Shown here piece after piece: positions 1,109 to 34,534 of a stretch of DNA of 47,525 nt. Below the pieces are notes generated by a model, which was not told where the DNA came from, did not search any database, and worked only from the letters and a program-made list of their open reading frames with translations. Each line of letters begins with the position of its first letter. The stretch's first letter is position 1. The position numbers were made by a program, and so were the translations under genes. Where the stretch lies: positions 1 to 47,525 of the forward strand of contig CAJXRL010000001.1 of assembly GCA_913059105.1 (NCBI GenBank). The letters are read 5' to 3'. The DNA comes from an uncultured Flavobacteriales bacterium (GTDB taxonomy: Bacteria; Bacteroidota; Bacteroidia; Flavobacteriales_E; Vicingaceae).

Positions 1109-2841
1109 CGGCATGTTTTGGAATAGGCATCTTTTGCATTTATTTCTCCCAGTTTAGCCGCTTTTAAAAAGGCAGCGCACGCAGCAGCTTTATTATCTTC
1201 TTGTTGCTCTAAAATCCCTTCTAGGAAGTATGCTCTTCCATAACTTGAATTTAGCTCTTGAGCAATCTTTACATCTTTCCTAGCTAACTCAATTTTCCTC
1301 AATTTTAAATAGGAGAAGGCCCTATTTGTGTATGAATCCGCTCTTGGTTGTAATTTAATACTTGCTGAATAATCTAAAATTGCTTCATTCAATTGATTCA
1401 ATTTGGAATATTCATTTGCTCTGTTAAAATAAGCATCAGCGTGCGGTTTTAACTGAATGGCTTTATTAAAGTCTTTCATTGCTGCTTCTGAATTTCCAGC
1501 TTGTGCAAAAAGATTACCTCTGTTAGAGTAAGCGTCAGCATAGTTGGGTTGAATCTCAATAGCGTGATGGAAATAGTCAAATGCCTTATTGTTCTCATTC
1601 TGTTTTAAAGCATAAGAGCCAAGGTTATTGTATGCTTGTGAAACAGTAGGGTGAGTTTCTAAAACCGATTGCCAAAGGGTTTCATCATTTTCCCATATGT
1701 GGACTCTTTGAAAAGAAAGCATGCTTAGCAAAAACAAAGGGATAATAAACAATAAAATGAACTTTGGATTCTTCAGCTTTTGTAGGAAAAACCCAATAAT
1801 AACAAGTAGCCCAAATAAGGGCAAATAAATGTATCTGTCAGTAGTGATTTGGTTGCCAAAAGGCACAAATTGTAGAACTAGTGCAATTGTAATAACAAAC
1901 CAAGCTACACCAAATACTATTAACCTCTTTTTTCTCAAAAATAAAAAGAATGTCGTTAACAATCCAATGATTACAATAGGACTTATATAGTATAGAATAG
2001 GAAGTGAGCCATTGGTTAAAATGGGATAAGGATAAAAAGCAGAAAGCCGAAAAGGGATTAATAATTTAATAGGGTAAAATAAGAAGGAGTGACTTACTAG
2101 AAATACTCTATCAAACGCACTAAAAGTTTCGTTTAAGTCTGACAAATGGCCAGCCGTCTCTCTTCCTAAAATGGTTATTAATCCAAATAGAATAGAGATA
2201 GCTAAAAATGGAATTTTTTGAAGCACAAATTTGATGTCAAATTTATTAGACAAGTAATAGTCATAAGCCAAGAGAATTATTGGGAATACGACTGCTGCCG
2301 ATTTTGAAAGGCATGATAAAAGAAATAGACTAAAGCACAAGGCTAAATACTTCGTATTATTTTCTTTTTTATACTTGATATAAGTCCAAAAGGCAGTAAG
2401 AAAGAAAAAGCTGAACAATAGGTTGCTAAAAGCTGAAACCCAAGCTACGCTTTCGACTTGCATAGGATGAACCAAGAAGAGCAGTGTCAAAATTAAACTC
2501 AATTTTTTCGTTGTGAAAAAATGCTGTAGGATTTTAAAAACGATAAGGCAGTTGGTTACATGGACCAACAAGGACAACAGGTGAAAAGCTTCTGGGTTTA
2601 AGCCAAATGTCGATAATGTGACTGCGTAAATGAGTGTGGTTACGGGTTGATACATTCCAACAAAAAAGTTGGAAAACATTCCTTTTAGAGATTGGAAATC
2701 AAGAGATTTTATAAACGGATTCTCTACCACCTGAACGTGGTCGTCGAGAAAAGTAAATGAATTATTTATGCCAGGAAGATAAATGACGCAGGCTATTACC
2801 GCAATTGCCAACCAGTAAAAAACACTTTTATCCCATTTCAT
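1105..2841 (-). CDS. Polytopic membrane protein with C-terminal TPR repeats (TMTC/ArnT-PMT-like glycosyltransferase fold, DUF1736-type)
   Basis: The N-terminal ~390 aa has many TM helices and an early FLDDHVQVVENPFI motif resembling the DD motif of TMTC/PMT-type enzymes. The C-terminal ~180 aa has repeated TPR signatures (AYNNLG, AYSNRG, AYFNRA, SYTNRA). Confidence 0.6.
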   Translation of the reverse strand: MKWDKSVFYWLAIAVIACVIYLPGINNSFTFLDDHVQVVENPFIKSLDFQSLKGMFSNFFVGMYQPVTTLIYAVTLSTFGLNPEAFHLLSLLVHVTNCLIVFKILQHFFTTKKLSLILTLLFLVHPMQVESVAWVSAFSNLLFSFFFLTAFWTYIKYKKENNTKYLALCFSLFLLSCLSKSAAVVFPIILLAYDYYLSNKFDIKFVLQKIPFLAISILFGLITILGRETAGHLSDLNETFSAFDRVFLVSHSFLFYPIKLLIPFRLSAFYPYPILTNGSLPILYYISPIVIIGLLTTFFLFLRKKRLIVFGVAWFVITIALVLQFVPFGNQITTDRYIYLPLFGLLVIIGFFLQKLKNPKFILLFIIPLFLLSMLSFQRVHIWENDETLWQSVLETHPTVSQAYNNLGSYALKQNENNKAFDYFHHAIEIQPNYADAYSNRGNLFAQAGNSEAAMKDFNKAIQLKPHADAYFNRANEYSKLNQLNEAILDYSASIKLQPRADSYTNRAFSYLKLRKIELARKDVKIAQELNSSYGRAYFLEGILEQQEDNKAAACAAFLKAAKLGEINAKDAYSKTCR

Positions 2842-2850
2842 ACTTTAATA

Positions 2851-4914
2851 TTACGAGATAGGCCTCCATTTGATGTCGTACTTTATACCGTTCTCATTCA
2901 CACATTCCATATCGGCTTCTAGTTGTTTTACCAAAGTTTCAATTAACAAAAAACCGAAAGACTCTTGATTCTTGATATCGGTCTCATCCTTAAATCCAAC
3001 TCCGTTATCAGAAATTTGCAAACGAATAAACCCTTCTTTTTTAGATAATTTTATATCAATTTGGCCGTTTTCGCCTTTCGTAAAGGCATGTTTTAAGGCA
3101 TTTGATACAATTTCGTTAATCAGTAATCCACATGGTATAGATTCATCCAAGTCAAGATGAATTTCTTCTAAGACCATCTTTGTTTTAATTTTTACTTGAT
3201 CAATTTTATACGTTTGAATTAATTGAGGAAGAAGTGTTTTAATATATTCACTAAATGGGGCTTCAATGCCATCAGTTTTCTTGTATAAGCTTTCATGAAT
3301 CAGTGACATCGATGTAATTCTGCTTTTACAATCATCAATTACTTTTTGAACTCTATCATCCGATATGTATTGAGTTTGAAGGCTCAACATGCTAGAAATT
3401 ACTTGTAGATTGTTTTTTACTCTGTGGTGTATTTCGTTCAATAACGAGTCTTTAATTTCTAATTGAGATTTTATTTCATTCTGTTTCTCAGTCAGTTGTT
3501 TTGATAAAATTTTATTTTTGTACAAGATGATAATTGCTAAAACCAACAACAATATTGAACAGGTAGCAATAATAATTGCAATCATCAATTGTGTTTGCTT
3601 TTTGGCGTTCAGTTCTTCTTGAATTTGAGCCTTTTCTTTTGCTAAAAGTAATTCGAAATGTGCTTCTTCTACTTGGATTTGGTGTTTAACAGCATACTCT
3701 TTCAGTACTTTAGGGTCTAAATCCAAGCTATCCCTCAAACTGATGTGAATTTTCAAATAACGATAACTACTATCAATCTGTTTTAATGCATCATAAATAA
3801 TTACTAATTGCTCCGAAGCATCTTTAATACTTTCATATTGTTGAACTGAATCAGAAATTGCGAATGATTTTTTCGCAGCGATTAATGCTCCTTGAAAATT
3901 ATTTTCCTCGATTAAAATTTTTGATTGCATTAAATACCCTTGCGCAAGTCCTACGGGATATTTTGTTAAGTGATTAGATTCTAAGGACAATAGGTTGTAG
4001 TATTTTGCACTGTCATAACTTTCTAAGCCCCAATAGCCATCACTTAAAAATAGATAGGCGTTTCCTTTTTCAAGTTCTTTATTATTAGAATTAAAGAATT
4101 GGATAGCTTTTAGTTGCAAGGAAATGCTTTTTCGATAGTTCTTTAGCATTAAGTTAACCAGACCAATGTTGGATAAAGCTCTATATTTTCCCTCATCATT
4201 TTTGTTTATTTTAAATGCAGACAACGAAAGTTCGTAATACCGCAGTGCCTGATTAAAATCATCTAAAAAATATAAAATATTACCCAGTTGAAGGTAAGCT
4301 ACTGCAAGTTTCTCTTTATTGCCTGTTTTCTTAAATATTTCGATTGCCTCATACGCATATTCTATAGCTACTTCATAATCCCCTGTGGCGTAACTGATCC
4401 CCGATTTTTTAATAGTGAGGTTTCCAATTTCCTTTGTAATCTTTAATTTAGAATATAGAGTAATTGCATTGTCGAGATGGAGATTGCTGCTATCGTATTG
4501 AAAACTATAAAAGTAATGAGGAGCCAAAAGTTGATGAAATATGGCCTTGCTCTCGAATTCATTTTGCTCTCTTGCGTTATGAATTGCACTCAATAAAAAC
4601 GGTTTTGCAATGTTGTATTGAAAGCTATTTTTTAAGAATTCTGAATGAGCTCTGTAAATAATTCTTTTTTGAGACTCTTCTAAATTAGTTAAGTTAAGTT
4701 CATTGAACTGCATAAATGCTTCGGCATATTTAGCAGAATCATCTTGAAGAAAATAAAACTCAATGGCTTTTTGCCATCCTTCGGCATTCTCATTTAGCTT
4801 ATTTGATTCGGTTAACCTTAATAAGCTGTCTGGTAATACTTCCTGACTTGAGGATAAAAATGGGAAGAAAATAAAAGTCAGAAAACTTAAAAGTGAAACT
4901 TTTAGAATTCTCAT
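2851..4914 (-). CDS. Sensor histidine kinase with N-terminal signal peptide, extracytoplasmic TPR domain, one TM helix and a HisKA_2/HATPase core
   Basis: H-box EIHHRVKNNLQVISSMLSLQ (HisKA_2 type), N-box NEIVSNALKHAF, G-box ISDNGVGF. TM segment LMIAIIIATCSILLLVLAIIILY. TPR-like repeats fill the first ~400 aa. Confidence 0.8.
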   Translation of the reverse strand: MRILKVSLLSFLTFIFFPFLSSSQEVLPDSLLRLTESNKLNENAEGWQKAIEFYFLQDDSAKYAEAFMQFNELNLTNLEESQKRIIYRAHSEFLKNSFQYNIAKPFLLSAIHNAREQNEFESKAIFHQLLAPHYFYSFQYDSSNLHLDNAITLYSKLKITKEIGNLTIKKSGISYATGDYEVAIEYAYEAIEIFKKTGNKEKLAVAYLQLGNILYFLDDFNQALRYYELSLSAFKINKNDEGKYRALSNIGLVNLMLKNYRKSISLQLKAIQFFNSNNKELEKGNAYLFLSDGYWGLESYDSAKYYNLLSLESNHLTKYPVGLAQGYLMQSKILIEENNFQGALIAAKKSFAISDSVQQYESIKDASEQLVIIYDALKQIDSSYRYLKIHISLRDSLDLDPKVLKEYAVKHQIQVEEAHFELLLAKEKAQIQEELNAKKQTQLMIAIIIATCSILLLVLAIIILYKNKILSKQLTEKQNEIKSQLEIKDSLLNEIHHRVKNNLQVISSMLSLQTQYISDDRVQKVIDDCKSRITSMSLIHESLYKKTDGIEAPFSEYIKTLLPQLIQTYKIDQVKIKTKMVLEEIHLDLDESIPCGLLINEIVSNALKHAFTKGENGQIDIKLSKKEGFIRLQISDNGVGFKDETDIKNQESFGFLLIETLVKQLEADMECVNENGIKYDIKWRPIS

Positions 4915-14732: not shown

Positions 14733-15506
14733 TTAACTTAATGGCCCTCTAATAATTCCCTTTTGGGAACCTTCAATGAAATTTAAAATTTGCGATTTTT
14801 CTGGCGAATCTTCAATAGAAGCTTTAATTTCCTCAAGTGATTTGGAAACATTTGTGCCGTGCACAAAAATGTGTCTATAAATGTCTTCGATTTGGCTTAT
14901 TGTAGCTGTTTGGTAGCCTCTTCGACGCATTCCTATTGCATTGATTCCTGCATAAGTCAAAGGCTCTCTAGCAGCCTTAACGAAAGGCGGCACATCTTTA
15001 CGAACTAACGAGCCACCCGCAATGAAAGAGTGCTCTCCAATTCTGATAAATTGTTGAACAGCTACTACCCCTTCTAAAATTACGTGATCTTCAATGGTTA
15101 CATGCCCAGCAATGTTAGCGGTATTAGCCAGAATGACATTATTGCCAATTTGCGCATCGTGAGCAATGTGCACGTAAGCCATTAACAAACAATCATTACC
15201 AACGGTAGTTTTGTTTCTGTCAACAGTTCCACGGTTTATTGTGACACACTCCCTGATGGTTGTATTATTGCCAATTTCAGCGGTAGTAATCTCCCCATGA
15301 AATTTTAAATCTTGTGGAATCGCTGAAATAACAGCACCAGGAAATATTTTACAATTGTTCCCAATTCTCGCGCCATCCATAATGGTTACATTGGGACCAA
15401 TCCATGTGTCATCTCCAATTACAACATCACCAGCAACGTACGTGAAGGGATCAATAATAACGTTTTTACCAATTTTTGCATCTGGGTGAATGTAAGCGTG
15501 CTCCAT
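14733..15506 (-). CDS. lpxA: Acyl-ACP--UDP-N-acetylglucosamine O-acyltransferase
   Basis: Hexapeptide-repeat beta-helix followed by the LpxA C-terminal helical domain (GINAIGMRRRG). Length is 257 aa, and it lies directly downstream of lpxC/fabZ. Confidence 0.9.
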   Translation of the reverse strand: MEHAYIHPDAKIGKNVIIDPFTYVAGDVVIGDDTWIGPNVTIMDGARIGNNCKIFPGAVISAIPQDLKFHGEITTAEIGNNTTIRECVTINRGTVDRNKTTVGNDCLLMAYVHIAHDAQIGNNVILANTANIAGHVTIEDHVILEGVVAVQQFIRIGEHSFIAGGSLVRKDVPPFVKAAREPLTYAGINAIGMRRRGYQTATISQIEDIYRHIFVHGTNVSKSLEEIKASIEDSPEKSQILNFIEGSQKGIIRGPLS

Positions 15507-16894
15507 TATTTTTCTTTTACAATTTGCGCCATTAACTCTCCTTCTGAAACTACTTTTCCATTAACATAGGCTTTGGCTGCCATTAAAACCATTCCTCTTC
15601 GAATTGGTTGCAACAAATCTAATCTAAATATTAAGACATCACCTGGAATAACTTTCCGTTTGAATTTTACTTTATCAATTTTCACAAAATAAGTAAGATA
15701 GTTTTCTGGATCTGGAACAGTACTTAGGGCTAAAATTCCACCGGTCTGCGCCATGGCTTCGATTTGTAAAACACCAGGCATTACTGGTGCGCCAGGAAAG
15801 TGACCTTGAAAGAACTGCTCATTCATTGTCACATTTTTCACTCCCACTACATGCGTTTCGCTTAACTCAATAATTTTATCTACTAACAACATCGGATAAC
15901 GATGAGGTAGCATCTTTTCTATGCTATTAATATCGTGAATAGCTTCCGATGTTAAATCAAATTTTGGACTGGCTCTTTCACGTTTTTTAATTTCTGCTTT
16001 TATAATACGAGCAAAGTCTACATTTCCTTTGTGGCCAGGTCTCGCTGCTAAAATGTGCCCTTTAATTGGTCTTCCAACTAAAGCTAAATCACCTACAATA
16101 TCCAATAACTTATGCCGTGCTGGCTCATCTTGAAAATGCAATTTTAAATTATTAAGCACCCCAGTGTCAGTAACTTCTATTCTAGGTTTGCCCAATAACT
16201 CCGCAATTTCGTCTAACTTTTCCTGCGGGGGGATGTGATCTACTAATACAATTGCGTTGTCTAAATCACCACCCTTTATAAGGTTGTTTTTTGCTAAAAA
16301 TTCTAATTCACGTAAGAATACAAAAGTTCTACACATGGATATATTTTCCTCAAACTCTCCTAACTTATACATGTGTGCATGCTGCGTTCCTAGAGTAGGA
16401 GAATTATAGTCAACCATTACCGTCAAGCGGAACTCATCTTGAGGTACCGCTAACATTTCTGTCATGCGATCAAGGTCTTCGTATGTTATATTTTCTTCAA
16501 CTACAAAAAAGTTTTTCTCAGCTTCTTGATCTTCAATACCAGCATCTTTTAATGCTTGCAAGAAAAAATGCGCACTACCATCTAATATTGGGACTTCTGG
16601 TCCATCAATCTCAATTAACAAGTTGTCGATCTCTAATCCATAAGCAGCAGCCAATAAATGTTCAGTAGTGTGAACCCTTGCTCCGTTTTGTTCGATAGTA
16701 GTTCCTCTTGAGGTATCAACAACTAAATCACAATCAGCTTTAATAGTAGGTTGTCCTTCTATGTCAATTCTTTGAAATACAAAGCCGTGATTTTCAGGGG
16801 CTGATTTGAAATTTACAGTCGATTTCACTCCTGTATGTAATCCAACTCCATTTAGTGAAATAGAGTTTGTAATAGTTTTTTGTTTCGTGCTCAT
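15506..16894 (-). CDS. lpxC/fabZ: Bifunctional UDP-3-O-acyl-GlcNAc deacetylase / 3-hydroxyacyl-ACP dehydratase (LpxC-FabZ fusion)
   Basis: The N-terminal half has LpxC motifs (GVGLHTG, HTTEHLLAA, GHKGNVDFA). The C-terminal half is FabZ (LPHRYPMLLVDKI, FFQGHFPGAPVMPGVLQIEAMAQ). This fusion is characteristic of Bacteroidota. Confidence 0.95.
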   Translation of the reverse strand: MSTKQKTITNSISLNGVGLHTGVKSTVNFKSAPENHGFVFQRIDIEGQPTIKADCDLVVDTSRGTTIEQNGARVHTTEHLLAAAYGLEIDNLLIEIDGPEVPILDGSAHFFLQALKDAGIEDQEAEKNFFVVEENITYEDLDRMTEMLAVPQDEFRLTVMVDYNSPTLGTQHAHMYKLGEFEENISMCRTFVFLRELEFLAKNNLIKGGDLDNAIVLVDHIPPQEKLDEIAELLGKPRIEVTDTGVLNNLKLHFQDEPARHKLLDIVGDLALVGRPIKGHILAARPGHKGNVDFARIIKAEIKKRERASPKFDLTSEAIHDINSIEKMLPHRYPMLLVDKIIELSETHVVGVKNVTMNEQFFQGHFPGAPVMPGVLQIEAMAQTGGILALSTVPDPENYLTYFVKIDKVKFKRKVIPGDVLIFRLDLLQPIRRGMVLMAAKAYVNGKVVSEGELMAQIVKEK

Positions 16895-19245: not shown

Positions 19246-19328
19246 GCGATTTAGATTTAACTAATTTTAGCAAGTGTGATTTGTAGCTTTGGCCATTTTC
19301 ACTTTACTTGCAATCAAAACAAAACTTA

Positions 19329-20882
19329 ATGACGAAGATAAGAATCCTATGGGCAGATGACGAAATTGCTCTTTTAAAACCACACATCATTTTTTTAGAG
19401 GCTAAAAATTACGAAGTAACACCTGCAACTAGTGGAGATGAGGCGTTGGATTTGATTGAAGAGAATCGGTATGATTTGGTTTTTTTAGATGAAAATATGC
19501 CTGGCCTATCTGGTCTTGAAACCTTAACTAAAATCAAGACAATGAGTCCTTCTTTACCGGTAATTATGATTACCAAAAGTGAAGAGGAATCCATCATGGA
19601 GGATGCTATTGGGGCAAAAATATCAGATTATTTAATTAAGCCGGTCAATCCGAATCAGATTTTGATGACGATTAAAAAGCATATTGATACTGCTCGTTTG
19701 GTGAGTGAAAAAACTAACATTGGCTATCAACAAGATTTTCGAAACATCGGGATGAGCCTTCATAACAATATGGATTATGAAGATTGGGAAGAGGTGTATA
19801 AGAAGTTGATTTACTGGGAACTTGAATTGGAGAAGTCAGAAGATACAGGGATGTCAGAAATTCTGAATACACAAAAAGAGGAAGCAGGTAATTTATTCGC
19901 CCGTTTTGTTGAGGATAATTATTTGGATTGGATAGAATATCCTGAAGAAGCTCCTTTGATGTCGCACAATGTGTTTAAAGAAAAAGTAAATCCATTAATT
20001 CAAAAAGAGGGATCAACTTTTTTAATTGTAATAGATAATTTGCGATTAGATCAATGGTATTTATTGAAACCACAGATTGAGGAAATGTTTTGGATTGATA
20101 AGGAGGAAACATACATGAGTATTCTTCCAACTACCACTCAATATGCTCGAAATGCCTTGTTTGCTGGACTGATGCCATTAGACATTGAAAAAATGTATCC
20201 GAAACTATGGTTGAATGACCAAGATGAAGGAGGCAAGAATATGAATGAACAAGAGTTGATAGGACATCAGCTAAAACGATTGGGCAAGGATACAAGGTTT
20301 GCTTATAACAAAGTGCTGAATCCAAACTATGGAAGAAAAGTGGTTAGCGAGATACCCAATCAGATGAATAATGCATTTAACGTAATAGTTTACAATTTCA
20401 TCGACATGTTATCTCATGCCCGAACCGATACAGATATTATAAAGGAATTGGCTGAAGATGAGGCGGCATACCGTTCATTGACCATGTCTTGGTTTGATCA
20501 TTCGCCATTAAAAGAAGCCTTGAAAGAAATTGCAGCACGAGGAGGGAAAGTTGTAATTACCACCGACCATGGGTCGATAAGAGTAAAAGAGCCTTCAAAA
20601 GTTATAGGAGATAAAACAGTGAACAATAATTTGAGATATAAGCAAGGTAAAAATTTGACGTATGATGCAGATGATGTGTTAGCAATTACCAAACCTGAGT
20701 TGGCTAGATTGCCAAAAGTGAATGTCAGTCAGTCGTTTATTTTTGCAAAAGGAGATGCTTTTTTCGCTTATCCAAATAACTATAATCACTATGTAAGTTA
20801 CTACAAGGATACTTTTCAGCATGGTGGTATATCTATGGAAGAGATGATGATTCCGATTATTCAGCTTTCGCCTAAAAAGTAG
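19329..20882 (+). CDS. porX: PorX-type response regulator (CheY receiver + PglZ/alkaline-phosphatase-like domain)
   Basis: Receiver domain (ILWADDE, DLVFLDENMPGLSG, ITKS, LIKP). C-terminal PglZ-type domain (NFIDMLSHAR, TTDHGS, QHGGIS). The track ORF begins at a TTG at 19308. The in-frame ATG at 19329 (MTKIRILWADDE) is the likelier start. Confidence 0.8.
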   Translation: MTKIRILWADDEIALLKPHIIFLEAKNYEVTPATSGDEALDLIEENRYDLVFLDENMPGLSGLETLTKIKTMSPSLPVIMITKSEEESIMEDAIGAKISDYLIKPVNPNQILMTIKKHIDTARLVSEKTNIGYQQDFRNIGMSLHNNMDYEDWEEVYKKLIYWELELEKSEDTGMSEILNTQKEEAGNLFARFVEDNYLDWIEYPEEAPLMSHNVFKEKVNPLIQKEGSTFLIVIDNLRLDQWYLLKPQIEEMFWIDKEETYMSILPTTTQYARNALFAGLMPLDIEKMYPKLWLNDQDEGGKNMNEQELIGHQLKRLGKDTRFAYNKVLNPNYGRKVVSEIPNQMNNAFNVIVYNFIDMLSHARTDTDIIKELAEDEAAYRSLTMSWFDHSPLKEALKEIAARGGKVVITTDHGSIRVKEPSKVIGDKTVNNNLRYKQGKNLTYDADDVLAITKPELARLPKVNVSQSFIFAKGDAFFAYPNNYNHYVSYYKDTFQHGGISMEEMMIPIIQLSPKK

Positions 20883-30336: not shown

Positions 30337-30822
30337 CTAACCACCATGATAGATTTCCTCTGTAATACATCTAATATCGAACTTCATTGTAAAACCCCTT
30401 AATGAAGCGTAATTAGCTTGAGTCAAATTTTGAATTCTAATTGAAAATGATTTTTTAATTGTAGCTGCGTATGGTTTATCCATCATTAGTTCAATGGTTA
30501 TTTCTTTTATCTCTTTCGGTTGAATGGTTATCCTTTTATTAATAGGGAATTGTCGAGTTAATGTGAATTCATTTTGTCCAACAGATAATTTATAATTTAA
30601 TGTTGGTTTAATAATAAAGTAAATAAATACTATAACACAAATACAGAAGAAGCTAATAATTAATACCAATAATTTTGATTTTTCGAATGCACCACAACAC
30701 CCAGATAAACGAAAAGGTGCGTTTATTTCTCTTTCGTTCTGAAGTGTTTTCGAAACACCAAGATACGAGAAATAGTGTTTGATTAAGGTTGTAGTTTGTA
30801 ACGTATTGTCAACAGAATCCAA
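30337..30822 (-). CDS. Hypothetical single-pass membrane protein (orphan)
   Basis: 161-aa ORF with one strong TM (LLVLIISFFCICVIVFIYFII) preceded by a CC pair. I recognise no family, and the start codon is uncertain. Confidence 0.35.
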   Translation of the reverse strand: MDSVDNTLQTTTLIKHYFSYLGVSKTLQNEREINAPFRLSGCCGAFEKSKLLVLIISFFCICVIVFIYFIIKPTLNYKLSVGQNEFTLTRQFPINKRITIQPKEIKEITIELMMDKPYAATIKKSFSIRIQNLTQANYASLRGFTMKFDIRCITEEIYHGG

Positions 30823-30860
30823 TTGTTAAAAGCTTTCGTGCCTTCTTCGTAAGGTGCTCC

Positions 30861-31409
30861 TCACGGCGAAGAACGTTCTTCAACGTACATTGGGGAAATG
30901 TCAGTATAGAGCTGATATGCGACGTTCACGCCATAACGGTCAGTAATTTGATAACCAATCCCAATTTTTGTTTGCCAGGCCAATTGGAACTAGTTTACTT
31001 TAAGGTAATCTAGTTTTGTATAATTGTTGCCGCTGTTTGAAAAGATATAGCTTAAAACTGGTCCTGTTCCTACAATTCCATGGAGTTTTTTACCAAGGTG
31101 AAATGCTATTCCTAAAGGAACTCTAATGTAGTCCAGACCTGTTTGGTCAGTTCTCCAAGTGTCATAACTCAAGGAAGCATGGTAACCAAAAATTACTTTT
31201 TTAGGAGTGTAGTAAAATCCCACTCCAATGCGGTAAAAATAGAAGGGCGTTGGCTTTAATGCTCCTTCTGTTTCAATGCTAGGAAAGAAAGGAGGGTTAA
31301 ATACACTGCCGTTCCCTGCTCCGGGATTTATGCTTATTTCTTGTTTTTTAGCACTCATTAAAATAACTGAAAAACATAAAATATACAGAAGAGTGAAGTG
31401 TTTTCTAAT
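30861..31409 (-). pseudogene. Small outer-membrane beta-barrel (OmpA-like/porin family) gene, apparently disrupted (no canonical start, in-frame TAG)
   Basis: The track ORF 30990-31358 lacks a signal peptide. The frame stays open 17 codons upstream and encodes a typical signal peptide (I-RKHFTLLYILCFSVILMSAKKQ) that begins with ATT directly after a TAA. Past the TAG at 30990-30992 the same frame continues for 42 codons with beta-strand-like sequence (KIGIGYQITDRYGVNVAYQLY). Confidence 0.4.
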
Positions 31410-31705: not shown

Positions 31706-33721
31706 TTATTTTGAAGAAGTAAACTGATAAAAATGATGCATGCTAAACACATGTGGCAAACTTAAACAGGATAGAATACTGAAGAATAGACCGATGTAAT
31801 TTTCATCTTCAAACAGTAAAAAATAGAAAATAATACCTGCACCACCAATGGTAAAAGGAAAAGCATTTTTCCACATTACGGATGATTCTTTTTTTAAACC
31901 GACGGAAAGGTGATTCCAGCCATTGATGCTATGCTGCAAGACGAAGTATATTCCAAATGCCATCAATAAAGACAATTGACTTGCCATTAAAAGATAAATT
32001 AACGTGATTAGCAAGTAGGTAGATTTGTTTAGTCGTGCTAAAATAAGACCAGAAGAAACACTCAATACTTGAATGAACAATAATGCATTATGAGGTATTT
32101 CATGAACTAGGTTTAGAGCAGCTAGATTAGGGATTTGCTTAAGAATATCGCTTAGTTCTTCTGCATGGAAAAATAGAATCACGGTTAAAAGGATAACACC
32201 CCATAAGAAGGACTGCCAACCCTGCTTTAAGTTCCATTCTTTAAAATCGGCTTGACCAAAGTGCCAAGCAGAATAGAGTATAAAAAGCGCTAATGCCACA
32301 TCGGAGGAAAACCACCAAACTAATCCAAAAAGAGCACCCTTCAGTAGGTAGCTCAGCACAAAGCAGATGAGTTGTTTAGAAGTTATAATATTCTGGGAGG
32401 TGAGATGATCTAAAGCCCCATGTGCTAGCCCTACCGATAAAAATCCTGGAGCTAAAATGCCCCATGCAATAAATTCAAACTGTAAGAAAGAAAGCAGGAT
32501 GGCAATAGGGGTAAAAATTAAAGGCAATGTTATAATTGGCAATCGATTAATTTGGTGATAGATATCTTTTAAAGCTGCTGTTATAAATAGTTTTTTGGGT
32601 AATTTAGAAAAAATAAATACTTCTTCTGAAAGCGTTGTTTTTTCTCTTAAAAACCTCAGTACGTTAATTAATGGGACCTTTTTAAATAGCATTTCAAATA
32701 CTTTTTTTCCTTGAAGAGGAGTATTGCTCAATATTTTTAATAGCAATCGACCATAAAATGAAAACCTGCCATTTCTTGCTTCTCTCGCAGGTTTTTGATT
32801 ACTTTTTAATGCTTTCGTTTGCAAAACCGCGTCTTCAGTCATGGAATGAAAAGCATAGCCTGTAGAGCATTTTAATAGGTTCGCTCGCGCTCCCATATTG
32901 ATCCAATTGTCTCCAAAGTCAGCAACTTCAATTTTACCAGAATGCATAGGAATTACGCCTACTTCATCTTCTAATTTTTCGAAGGTCGTATCCAATTCTT
33001 GCACATAGTCTCGCAGAATGGTATGAGCTTCTTCTTTGGTTAACTTTTCTTTACCAAATCGGGTTAATTCAACAAGCGCTGTATCAGACTCAAATGGGAG
33101 AACATAAATAAATTGTGTATAACCATTTTGAGGAATTTTAAAATCCATCAAGACCATGGAGGAGGTATCAAACACTTGTTTATCCGTTTTAATTTTCCAT
33201 CCGTAAAATGATTGGTATAGACGACTTTCGTTCTTTTGTAGTTTTGAGAATGTAGGTGGACGACTGTCATAAACTTTATGACAACGAAATACCGATCCAC
33301 CAGTAGTAACTTCTATATAATCAGAGCCTGTACTAGTAGTATTATCTAAGGTGCTTCGAAAATAGGTAACCTCACTTAGGCTTAAAATTTCTTTTGTTTT
33401 GTTAGAAAGGTCAGCTCCTTTTACCTGATAATAACTTAATGGCTGTATGTTTTGTTTGGCGATTCCAGTAATCTCAATTTGTTGCCAACTGCAGCTAACC
33501 AACTCTTCAAGATTCAGGGAAAAAAGTTCTTCTTTTGTGGACCAAAAACAGAATGTTTTATCATCGGTTAATTTACTGCGTGGTTCAATAATGGCAATTG
33601 TTTTTCCATCGAGTAAGCCGTTTTTGTAAAGACTTAAAATCAGCAAACTGTTAGCCGCGCCAAGTCCAATAAATAGGAAATCGTATACTGAATAAGTATT
33701 GGCTAAAGCTGGCTGTTTCAT
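31706..33721 (-). CDS. crtY-blh: Fusion protein: CrtY-type lycopene beta-cyclase (aa ~1-390) + Brp/Blh beta-carotene 15,15'-dioxygenase (aa ~395-671)
   Basis: The N-terminal half has the FAD fold YDFLFIGLGAANSLL, then FIYVLPF..ALVELTRF, EVGVIPMHSG, GARANLLKCSTGYAF and the C-terminal LRFLREKTTLSEE block, all colinear with CrtY. The C-terminal half is polytopic with Brp/Blh-type His motifs (LAHGALDH, SAWHFGQ, LQHSINGWNH, PHVFSMHH). It is a single uninterrupted 671-codon frame. Confidence 0.85.
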   Translation of the reverse strand: MKQPALANTYSVYDFLFIGLGAANSLLILSLYKNGLLDGKTIAIIEPRSKLTDDKTFCFWSTKEELFSLNLEELVSCSWQQIEITGIAKQNIQPLSYYQVKGADLSNKTKEILSLSEVTYFRSTLDNTTSTGSDYIEVTTGGSVFRCHKVYDSRPPTFSKLQKNESRLYQSFYGWKIKTDKQVFDTSSMVLMDFKIPQNGYTQFIYVLPFESDTALVELTRFGKEKLTKEEAHTILRDYVQELDTTFEKLEDEVGVIPMHSGKIEVADFGDNWINMGARANLLKCSTGYAFHSMTEDAVLQTKALKSNQKPAREARNGRFSFYGRLLLKILSNTPLQGKKVFEMLFKKVPLINVLRFLREKTTLSEEVFIFSKLPKKLFITAALKDIYHQINRLPIITLPLIFTPIAILLSFLQFEFIAWGILAPGFLSVGLAHGALDHLTSQNIITSKQLICFVLSYLLKGALFGLVWWFSSDVALALFILYSAWHFGQADFKEWNLKQGWQSFLWGVILLTVILFFHAEELSDILKQIPNLAALNLVHEIPHNALLFIQVLSVSSGLILARLNKSTYLLITLIYLLMASQLSLLMAFGIYFVLQHSINGWNHLSVGLKKESSVMWKNAFPFTIGGAGIIFYFLLFEDENYIGLFFSILSCLSLPHVFSMHHFYQFTSSK

Positions 33722-33744: not shown

Positions 33745-33784
33745 CATAAAAAAGGGGTGATAATTTTAAACTATCACCCCTTTA
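33745..33784 (-). terminator. Rho-independent terminator immediately downstream of the rhodopsin gene
   Basis: The minus strand reads AAAGGGGTGATAG-TTTAAAAT-TATCACCCCTTTTTTATG. This is a 9-12 bp GC-containing stem followed by a T6 run. It starts ~20 nt after the rhodopsin stop and ends ~25 nt before the crtY-blh ATG. Confidence 0.6.
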
Positions 33785-33802: not shown

Positions 33803-34534
33803 TTATGCTTTTACTGTTGCATTGTCTGTTCTGCTTAAGGCATAAATCACTAAACCAAAACCGATTTTGTTAATTGCATCCGCAATGTTGTAAACGATAT
33901 CCATAGCATTAAGTGCTGCTGCTGTATCTTGTACTAGTTGAATTCCAAATAATCCGCCAGGAGTACCGAGGATGTACCCTAAAGGATAAATTGCCCATCC
34001 GACTAAAACAAACCAGCCAAGTATTTTGGTAGCTTTTGCTACTTGAGGACCTGCTTCCTGAGCAAGTTTTGAAACTTCTCCAAACCAAACTAGGTATACG
34101 ATATAGAAGTATGCTATTCCTGATAATACGCCCCAAAGTACACTGCTATCTCTGTCTAAAACTTCTCCAACATAACCTGTTACTAGCATCACTAACGATG
34201 CAAATATCAATTTCCAAAGCAAACCAATTTTTGCACCTGCCTTTTTGGTAATTAAGTAAAATTCCACACACATTAATGGTACAGTTAAGATCCAATCAAC
34301 ATAACGGAAAAATGTAGGCGATTCACCCGTCTCAAGGTTATAACTTCTCATGTAGTAGTAATGCACTGCTGCAATAAAAGTAATTAAGCCTGAAACAAGA
34401 ACTGAGGTTCTCCACTGTTTAGAGGTGTTGTTCAACTCCAAAAAGAAAAATACTGATGCGGCCATCATAGCCATTGTTCCAATAAAGAACGTGAAAGCAA
34501 CATAATTGTCGCTGGCAATTTTTAAATGTTCCAT
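33803..34534 (-). CDS. Proteorhodopsin-type light-driven proton pump (DTE motif, Met at spectral-tuning position)
   Basis: 243 aa with 7 TM helices. Helix C is FRYVDWILTVPLMCVEFY, giving D80/T84/E91, equivalent to D97/T101/E108 of green proteorhodopsin. Also present are H58 (equivalent to H75), M88 (position 105), counterion D219 and Schiff-base K223 in NIADAINKIGFG. Confidence 0.95.
   Translation of the reverse strand: MEHLKIASDNYVAFTFFIGTMAMMAASVFFFLELNNTSKQWRTSVLVSGLITFIAAVHYYYMRSYNLETGESPTFFRYVDWILTVPLMCVEFYLITKKAGAKIGLLWKLIFASLVMLVTGYVGEVLDRDSSVLWGVLSGIAYFYIVYLVWFGEVSKLAQEAGPQVAKATKILGWFVLVGWAIYPLGYILGTPGGLFGIQLVQDTAAALNAMDIVYNIADAINKIGFGLVIYALSRTDNATVKA

Follow-up and report, generated by a model that had tools for sequence, protein, structure and literature searches.

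The window analysed here is a stretch of 47,525 nucleotides from an uncultured Flavobacteriales bacterium of the Vicingaceae (assembly GCA_913059105.1, contig CAJXRL010000001.1, positions 1–47,525 of the forward strand). It contains a gene in which two enzymes of retinal synthesis, a lycopene cyclase (CrtY) and a beta-carotene dioxygenase of the Brp/Blh family, are joined in one open reading frame (ORF) beside a rhodopsin gene. We propose that this gene encodes a bifunctional, membrane-anchored enzyme for the last two steps of retinal synthesis, and we put the probability of this reading at about 0.8. The case is built on domain identity, conservation, selection, the ancestral gene order and the logic of membrane topology. 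The catalytic activities of both halves are predicted from the sequence. The gene and its parts, in window coordinates and amino acid (aa) positions of the fused protein, are:

31706–33721, minus strand: CrtY-Blh fusion ORF, 671 codons plus stop, with an ATG start (ORF list, Pfam).
32546–33721, minus strand: CrtY half, of the flavin adenine dinucleotide (FAD)-dependent lycopene cyclase type, aa 1 to about 392 (Pfam, alignments with stand-alone CrtY, invariant residues, model fold).
32486–32542, minus strand: extra N-terminal transmembrane helix 'TM0', LPIITLPLIFTPIAILLSF, aa 394–412, which connects CrtY, on the cytoplasmic side, with the nine helices of the Blh core.
31709–32482, minus strand: Blh core, of the beta-carotene 15,15'-dioxygenase type, aa about 414–671, with nine predicted helices (Pfam BCD, TIGR03753, invariant histidines).

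An earlier note on this DNA, made from the sequence alone, had described a full-length CrtY and a full-length Brp/Blh protein in one 671-codon frame next to a rhodopsin, and this is borne out by the ORF list and by domain hidden Markov models (HMMs). The note had suggested an HMM search of the 671-aa protein, and Pfam supports both halves above the gathering cut-offs. Lycopene_cycl (PF05834) matches aa 14–376 over model positions 1–372 of 380, with 167.7 bits against a cut-off of 23.4 (E 5e-49), and BCD (PF15461) matches aa 428–660 with 103.6 bits against a cut-off of 28 (E 2e-29). The NCBIfam model for Blh, TIGR03753, matches from aa 422 with 120.1 bits, where the cut-off is 95.25. A direct check of the sequence found every motif quoted in the note at its residues. 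The CrtY half has YDFLFIGLGAANSLL (aa 13–27) and LRFLREKTTLSEE (aa 355–367), and the Blh half has LAHGALDH (aa 432–439), SAWHFGQ (aa 484–490), LQHSINGWNH (aa 595–604) and PHVFSMHH (aa 656–663). Codons 376–436, which span the junction, contain no stop, ATG or GTG; TTG codons at 394 and 399 are the sole start candidates, again as the note had it.

The dinucleotide-binding motif of the CrtY half, FIGLGAAN (GxGxAN), is well conserved. In an alignment of 70 fused homologues G19 and N24 are invariant and G21 is retained in at least 90%; all three are invariant in a smaller alignment of 15 sequences. A second segment, ALVELTRFG (aa 215–223), is also conserved and its E218 is invariant in the aligned homologues. 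Searched with Foldseek, the modelled fold of this half resembles geranylgeranyl reductases and FAD monooxygenases best, with E-values down to 4e-12. The flavoprotein half was the only one matched in the Foldseek comparison with the PDB, and a sequence search of solved structures gave no match for either half.

Is the fusion a peculiarity of this one genome? It is not rare. A search of 5.8 billion proteins returned at least 120 clusters (90% identity) of about 670 aa with both Pfam domains, with identity down to 47% among the clusters listed. When one genome of each prokaryotic species was scanned, 274 genomes had a relative, and 80 loci were retained for analysis. All of these span both halves, at identities down to 36%. 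The frame is a single uninterrupted ORF of at least 630 aa in 73 of them, five are truncated by contig ends and two are frameshifted. A query made of the junction alone (151 residues, aa 330–480) found 145 matches among 1.84 billion cluster representatives, of which 84 are full-length two-domain proteins (50%-identity clusters) and 25 are two-domain fragments. The junction is free of gaps in the alignments of both 15 and 70 fused homologues. An ENA metagenome assembly made independently encodes the same 671-aa protein among the same neighbours, and the identical ORF is found on contigs of 13.8, 47.5 and 4.4 kb.

The sequences also carry the mark of selection. Compared with five close relatives, the ratio of non-synonymous to synonymous substitution rates (dN/dS) is 0.12–0.22 for the CrtY half, 0.14–0.23 for the Blh half and 0.14–0.21 for the junction. 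By this measure both halves and the junction are under purifying selection.

According to the titles of their records, the loci belong to Flavobacteriales (Vicingaceae, Crocinitomicaceae, Cryomorphaceae), Chitinophagales, Sphingobacteriales, Saprospirales and Cytophagales, with a few in Kapaibacteria/Ignavibacteria. Nearly all come from metagenome-assembled genomes (MAGs) of marine and fresh water. The nearest relatives of the window fusion, at 78–84% identity, are in genomes of Vicingaceae or unclassified Flavobacteriales. The protein is a member of a large, conserved family of fusions in mostly uncultured aquatic Bacteroidota. Database names cover only one half of the protein, either 'lycopene beta-cyclase' or 'beta-carotene 15,15'-dioxygenase, Brp/Blh family', with the exception of one RefSeq Pedobacter entry that names both. 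The earlier note had not known this as a characterised architecture. That stands in so far as no report was found in the papers searched, but the fusion itself is already in the databases, in at least 84 clusters and at least 73 species-level genomes.

The histidines expected of the dioxygenase are present in the Blh half. His434, His487, His597 and His657, and also His519, are invariant in the 70 fused homologues, and H604 is retained in at least 90%. The Blh of the uncultured marine bacterium 66A03 (Q4PNI0), which has been studied biochemically, is reported to have a nine-helix core, and a planar four-histidine site formed by His21, His78, His188 and His256 has been proposed for it (preprint 10.64898/2026.08.06.743266). 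By order and spacing, H434, H487, H597 and H657 would correspond to these four. The fused Blh resembles Q4PNI0 in its nine-helix core, its four histidines and its matches to Pfam BCD and TIGR03753 above cut-off. Unlike it, Q4PNI0 is a stand-alone protein of about 275 aa with its first ligand histidine at residue 21 and without a helix equivalent to aa 394–412, so that the N-termini of Q4PNI0 and of the fused Blh would face different sides of the membrane.

Where does one enzyme end and the other begin? The earlier note had put the end of cyclase homology at about aa 385 and had described what follows as a short hydrophobic linker. Both statements need correction. Stand-alone CrtY proteins (about 370–405 aa) align at their C-termini with aa 372–392 or so of the fusion and have in common with it the tail motif LPKxxF...(K/R)D, which moves the boundary to about aa 392. 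The hydrophobic stretch is a transmembrane helix, also present in the closest stand-alone Blh proteins, and would act as a topological adaptor and not as a spacer. These Blh proteins start 10–20 residues before the helix that aligns with aa 394–412 and have their first ligand histidine at residue 31–57. As the end of stand-alone CrtY and the helix of stand-alone Blh both abut, there is essentially no spacer at the junction. The idea of a novel linker was rejected because the stand-alone Blh relatives carry the same helix, and for the same reason the helix probably predates the fusion.

This helix is the tenth, N-terminal helix of the dioxygenase half and lies outside the matches to BCD and TIGR03753. 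Its mean hydropathy is 2.21, and five of the 21 residues that precede it are lysine or arginine. In an AF2 model of the protein (mean predicted local distance difference test score 88.4, predicted template modelling score 0.74) the helices continue across the junction. The C-terminal helix of CrtY spans residues 376–393, the next helix 398–412, and nine more follow from 416 to 668. A ten-helix model with the N-terminus inside places ten lysines and arginines in cytoplasmic loops against one in periplasmic loops. The flavin and the reductant of CrtY are located in the cytoplasm. The nine-helix core alone would, in the model, have its N-terminus outside. We infer that it is the extra helix that allows a cytoplasmic protein to be fused to the N-terminus with a workable topology. 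That CrtY is tethered to the membrane, as the earlier note had proposed, follows directly from this architecture.

Upstream of the fusion lie two further features of the same strand:

33803–34534, minus strand: rhodopsin gene, predicted to encode a proteorhodopsin-type proton pump of 243 aa (Pfam Bac_rhodopsin, E 2e-43).
33748–33783, minus strand: terminator-like intercistronic hairpin, a 15-bp stem followed by six U, lying after the rhodopsin stop and before the fusion ATG.

The rhodopsin has D80, T84 and E91 in helix C (D-T-E), methionine at the spectral-tuning position and the Schiff-base Lys223 in helix G, and the fusion gene starts 81 bp downstream of it. The two form an island between mfd, a gene for an FtsX-type permease, purH and mreBCD. 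Across the 80 loci rhodopsin is the only recurrent partner of the fusion. It lies 75–200 bp upstream on the same strand in 40 loci, downstream and convergent in seven and in other nearby positions in five, while in nine loci the upstream sequence is too short to judge its presence. The other recurrent neighbours that were scanned (ABC transporter, TyrRS, ankyrin, Pirin, MBOAT, DOMON/PKD) were rejected as partners, being housekeeping-type, surface or unannotated.

The hairpin between the two genes folds with -27.1 kcal/mol (z = -5.6; none of 200 shuffled sequences folds as well), and its U-run ends 27 nt before the fusion ATG. Of the 31 related intergenic regions that allowed parsing, 27 likewise have a hairpin with a T-run, of unrelated stem sequence; the hairpin is conserved in structure only. 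This suggests expression by terminator read-through, which to judge from the sequence is the most likely mode for the fusion. Transcription would then come mainly from the rhodopsin promoter by partial read-through of the terminator, giving much pump and little enzyme.

The rhodopsins differ from the fusions in how closely they are conserved. Among loci L001–L079 the rhodopsin is 88–97% identical to that of the window where the fusion is only 47–84% identical. A second rhodopsin class, about 63% identical, is the one found downstream and convergent in seven loci, and the fusions there are equally distant, at 47–51% identity. These patterns suggest either that the pump is very strongly constrained or that pump and enzyme have had separate histories.

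In the pathway that we propose, the CrtY half (aa 1 to about 392) would cyclise lycopene to beta-carotene on the cytoplasmic face of the membrane. The extra helix (aa 394–412) would cross the membrane, so that the Blh core (aa about 414–671) keeps its normal orientation. With its four-histidine iron site this core would cleave beta-carotene at the 15,15' bond into two retinals, and the retinal would be loaded into the proteorhodopsin encoded 81 bp upstream.

How such a fusion could have arisen is suggested by relatives in which the two enzymes are separate. The nearest stand-alone relatives of the CrtY half are encoded immediately upstream of a stand-alone blh, on the same strand. In locus L085 (GCA_038209155.1) crtY occupies 1042–2262 and blh 2259–3134, with the stop and start overlapping as ATGA, an arrangement of translational coupling. 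In locus L086 crtY is followed by blh after a gap of 44 bp. These pairs have the same enzymes in the same order and on the same strand as the fusion, and they likewise have the LPKxxF... motif in the CrtY tail and, in Blh, the additional N-terminal helix. They differ in being two polypeptides: in the window the stop codon has been lost, and the CrtY sequence leads directly into the Blh helix of a single protein. On this comparison separate genes in the order crtY then blh are the probable ancestral state. The fusion probably came from a translationally coupled pair through loss of the crtY stop codon; a small frameshift at the coupled ATGA junction would yield it.

The separate state also occurs in a near-identical strain. 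It is seen in a pair of metagenome contigs whose flanks are 99.6% identical on both sides, one with the fused and the other with a split allele:

L083, 2047–4095, contig SRR19514068_92980: fused allele, a 682-aa gene.
L081, 1591–2778, and L082, 6001–6879, Logan contig SRR13425445_46224: split allele, a 395-aa CrtY and a 292-aa Blh, both intact.

In the split allele about 10.9 kb with three opposite-strand genes (minus strand; 685, 2308 and 565 aa, with no Pfam hit on record) stand in place of the 81 bp that encode the junction and first helix in the fused one. The Blh of the split allele begins at a new start, with a different but still Blh-like first helix. Either a genuine insertion or recombination or a chimeric assembly could account for this. 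The split implies that the halves are separable modules, and together with the coupled two-gene relatives it indicates that the unfused state also works in nature.

What, then, might be gained by fusion? Channelling of beta-carotene away from competitors such as the hydroxylase CrtZ is plausible, and we would give it a little less than even odds. A kinetic benefit is plausible because beta-carotene is extremely hydrophobic and Blh is reported to be poor on hydroxylated carotenoids. Zeaxanthin is an example of the latter (preprint 10.64898/2026.08.06.743266), and capturing beta-carotene ahead of CrtZ would thus protect the retinal supply. A more ambitious proposal is rather unlikely. It combines a dedicated lycopene-to-retinal channel, with the extra helix as adaptor, in which beta-carotene would pass directly from the cyclase to the iron site of Blh and out of reach of CrtZ, and a self-sufficient light cassette of two genes, rhodopsin and fusion, in about 2.9 kb, with terminator read-through setting the ratio of pump to enzyme. 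If true, any Bacteroidota cell that produces lycopene could become phototrophic by means of this cassette.

The rival that fares best accepts the fusion as real and bifunctional but holds it to be selectively neutral: a frameshift at the ATGA overlap joined two membrane neighbours, with no kinetic or channelling benefit. This is a serious possibility, although we would not call it probable. The two-gene state with a 4-bp overlap does exist in relatives, a near-identical strain does have the halves as separate genes, and fusions of consecutive carotenoid enzymes recur, as in CrtYB, CrtIBY and CrtIB (PMC10284914, PMC10016063). However, the fused form has persisted down to 36% identity, through several orders of Bacteroidota and into Kapaibacteria/Ignavibacteria. 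The length of the junction is constant and its sequence is under purifying selection. Only one true split was found among the 80 loci and the 145 junction matches.

Several observations weigh against a bifunctional enzyme that serves the neighbouring rhodopsin. If the split strain is as it appears, the fusion is dispensable at least sometimes. In 19 of the 80 loci there is enough flanking sequence but no rhodopsin nearby, and no second rhodopsin type was found among the neighbours scanned in the loci that lack proteorhodopsin. No other carotenoid gene, crtE, crtB, crtI and crtZ included, was found among the 34 ORFs of the window that were scanned besides the fusion and the rhodopsin, so the supply of lycopene and any competing branch are not seen there. 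Finally, the CrtY half falls below the NCBIfam cut-offs, with 102.8 bits against 209.5 for the subfamily model TIGR01790 and 49.5 against 215.2 for the CrtY equivalog TIGR01789, and its exact product, bicyclic or monocyclic, can therefore not be named from those models.

This last point leads to an alternative view of the CrtY half. It may not be a standard lycopene beta-bicyclase but a monocyclase that makes gamma-carotene, another carotenoid-modifying flavoprotein, or mainly a structural or regulatory domain, in which case the fusion would yield something other than two all-trans-retinals per lycopene. Besides the scores below the equivalog and carotene-cyclase subfamily cut-offs, it is in favour of this view that monocyclases and bicyclases are inseparable by sequence alone, and that Blh is reportedly promiscuous toward several carotenoids (preprint 10.64898/2026.08.06.743266). 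Nevertheless we consider it improbable. The match to Lycopene_cycl is strong and runs from end to end of the model, invariance extends to the nucleotide-binding motif and to many residues of the core, and dN/dS here is no higher than for the Blh half. The nearest stand-alone relatives lie directly upstream of blh, the position expected of an enzyme that feeds it. On its sequence, the CrtY half is best placed in a divergent clade of the lycopene cyclase family.

Could the single frame still give two proteins? Internal initiation at TTG394 or TTG399, or proteolysis at the junction, would make separate enzymes the functional state. The pair of in-frame TTG codons does stand at the start of the extra helix, and stand-alone Blh relatives do begin some 10–20 residues before the equivalent helix. 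But the region has neither ATG nor GTG, and a product started at TTG394 would miss the positively charged N-terminal flank of the stand-alone relatives. Residues 394 and 399 are not invariant, the coding constraint at the junction resembles that of the rest of the protein, and there is no sign of a processing site. Two products from this ORF are very unlikely.

A sequencing or assembly artefact, in which an indel collapsed two ordinary genes into one frame, is effectively refuted: two related MAG loci (L034 and L047) do have frameshifts, but these lie in poly-A runs within the Blh domain, away from the junction, whereas the same uninterrupted frame recurs in 73 of 80 loci of different species, the junction has no gaps across 70 sequences and is under selection, and the identical ORF is found in an independent assembly and on contigs of several lengths. 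The two frameshifted loci are both from Crocinitomicaceae MAGs. The frame is shifted at the same spot in each, in A7 and A9 runs just past HGALDH (L034, about 1880–1900; L047, about 1800–1815). This is probably an error in homopolymer length, with slipped-strand switching as the alternative.

The two enzyme families are well known, as is the occurrence of blh beside rhodopsin genes. The CrtY of Pantoea ananatis is an FAD-dependent, non-redox lycopene beta-cyclase and a separate, peripheral membrane protein. The CrtY half of the fusion has in common with it the full-length Pfam Lycopene_cycl domain, the N-terminal GxGxAN motif and the flavin-monooxygenase-like fold; it differs from CrtY equivalogs such as this one in its low similarity, as is seen in its TIGR01789 score. 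Classical proteorhodopsin photosystem clusters consist of rhodopsin with crtE, crtI, crtB, crtY and blh (PMC10284914).

Natural fusions of carotenoid enzymes include CrtYB and CrtIBY in fungi and thraustochytrids, and a verrucomicrobial CrtIB beside proteorhodopsin was reported as new in 2023; the benefit proposed for such fusions is better transfer of intermediates (PMC10284914). Like the window fusion, these place consecutive pathway enzymes in one polypeptide, some of them within rhodopsin clusters. They are, however, other enzyme pairs, and none combines a cyclase with the cleavage enzyme. Another natural fusion is a four-domain protein of Thecamonas trahens, CrtI-CrtB-CrtYc/d-Blh (PMC10016063). 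There too a Blh domain follows immediately on a lycopene cyclase domain, but the protein is eukaryotic, its cyclase is of the unrelated heterodimer type CrtYc/d, and it also includes the desaturase and the synthase. With a frame conserved in 73 of 80 loci and constraint on both halves, the window fusion counts as a natural multi-enzyme carotenoid fusion, which is a functional class and not a homologous family. CrtY-Blh is absent from the list of natural fusions in PMC10284914, and no description or test of a natural bacterial fusion of FAD-type CrtY with Blh was found in the full-text literature searched, the coverage of which was incomplete. This is an ordinary pathway in an undescribed fused form, and in principle it is no surprise.

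Some other features of the window and of the related loci were recorded. Downstream of the fusion, in 30337–31358 on the minus strand, are ORFs of 122 aa (30990–31358) and 161 aa (30337–30822, TTG start), neither of which matches Pfam. The ORF beginning at the equivalent of 31358 was called as 165 aa instead of 122 aa in the independent assembly, which means that one assembly differs or carries a frameshift there. Elsewhere the window has an LpxC-FabA-like two-domain fusion (15506–16894, minus strand) and a response-regulator receiver with a PglZ domain (19308–20882, plus strand). LpxC-FabZ fusions and PorX-type regulators are usual for Bacteroidota, and these two genes would fit the taxonomic assignment.

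A polytopic membrane protein of about 300 aa without a Pfam domain adjoins the fusion, or lies just upstream of the rhodopsin, in 11 loci:

L013, 12060–12944: member of the family.
L016, 9022–9924: member of the family.
L023, 12218–13165: member of the family.
L024, 12–941: member of the family.
L027, 7931–8860: member of the family.
L040, 4963–5862: member of the family.
L063, 8053–8973: member of the family.
L072, 6815–7747: member of the family.
L078, 8093–8998: member of the family.
L085, 91–1002: member of the family.
L020, 6991–7611: also clustered with the family.

This family is highly conserved, with many invariant polar residues, and has at least 8000 homologues, all labelled hypothetical. 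It was rejected as a retinal partner, since three arbitrarily chosen members on long contigs lie away from retinal genes and the helix-seven lysine is not conserved. Its link with the fusion is probably one of shared gene-order ancestry (synteny) and not of function.

What does the fusion mean for these bacteria? A rhodopsin gene becomes a functioning system for using light energy only when retinal is supplied. In surveys of aquatic phototrophy crtY and blh are counted as two genes, and one-function database labels can make the retinal pathway look incomplete. The finding is of use to those who annotate genomes or survey pathways, and it offers a natural test case of enzyme fusion. The protein is a natural design for moving a very hydrophobic intermediate between membrane enzymes, a task for which engineers use artificial fusions, and the coupled two-gene form and the split allele in a near-identical strain are its natural controls. 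If there is no channelling, what stands is still a well-supported correction of annotation. If there is, it would explain how organisms that make hydroxylated carotenoids reserve beta-carotene for retinal.

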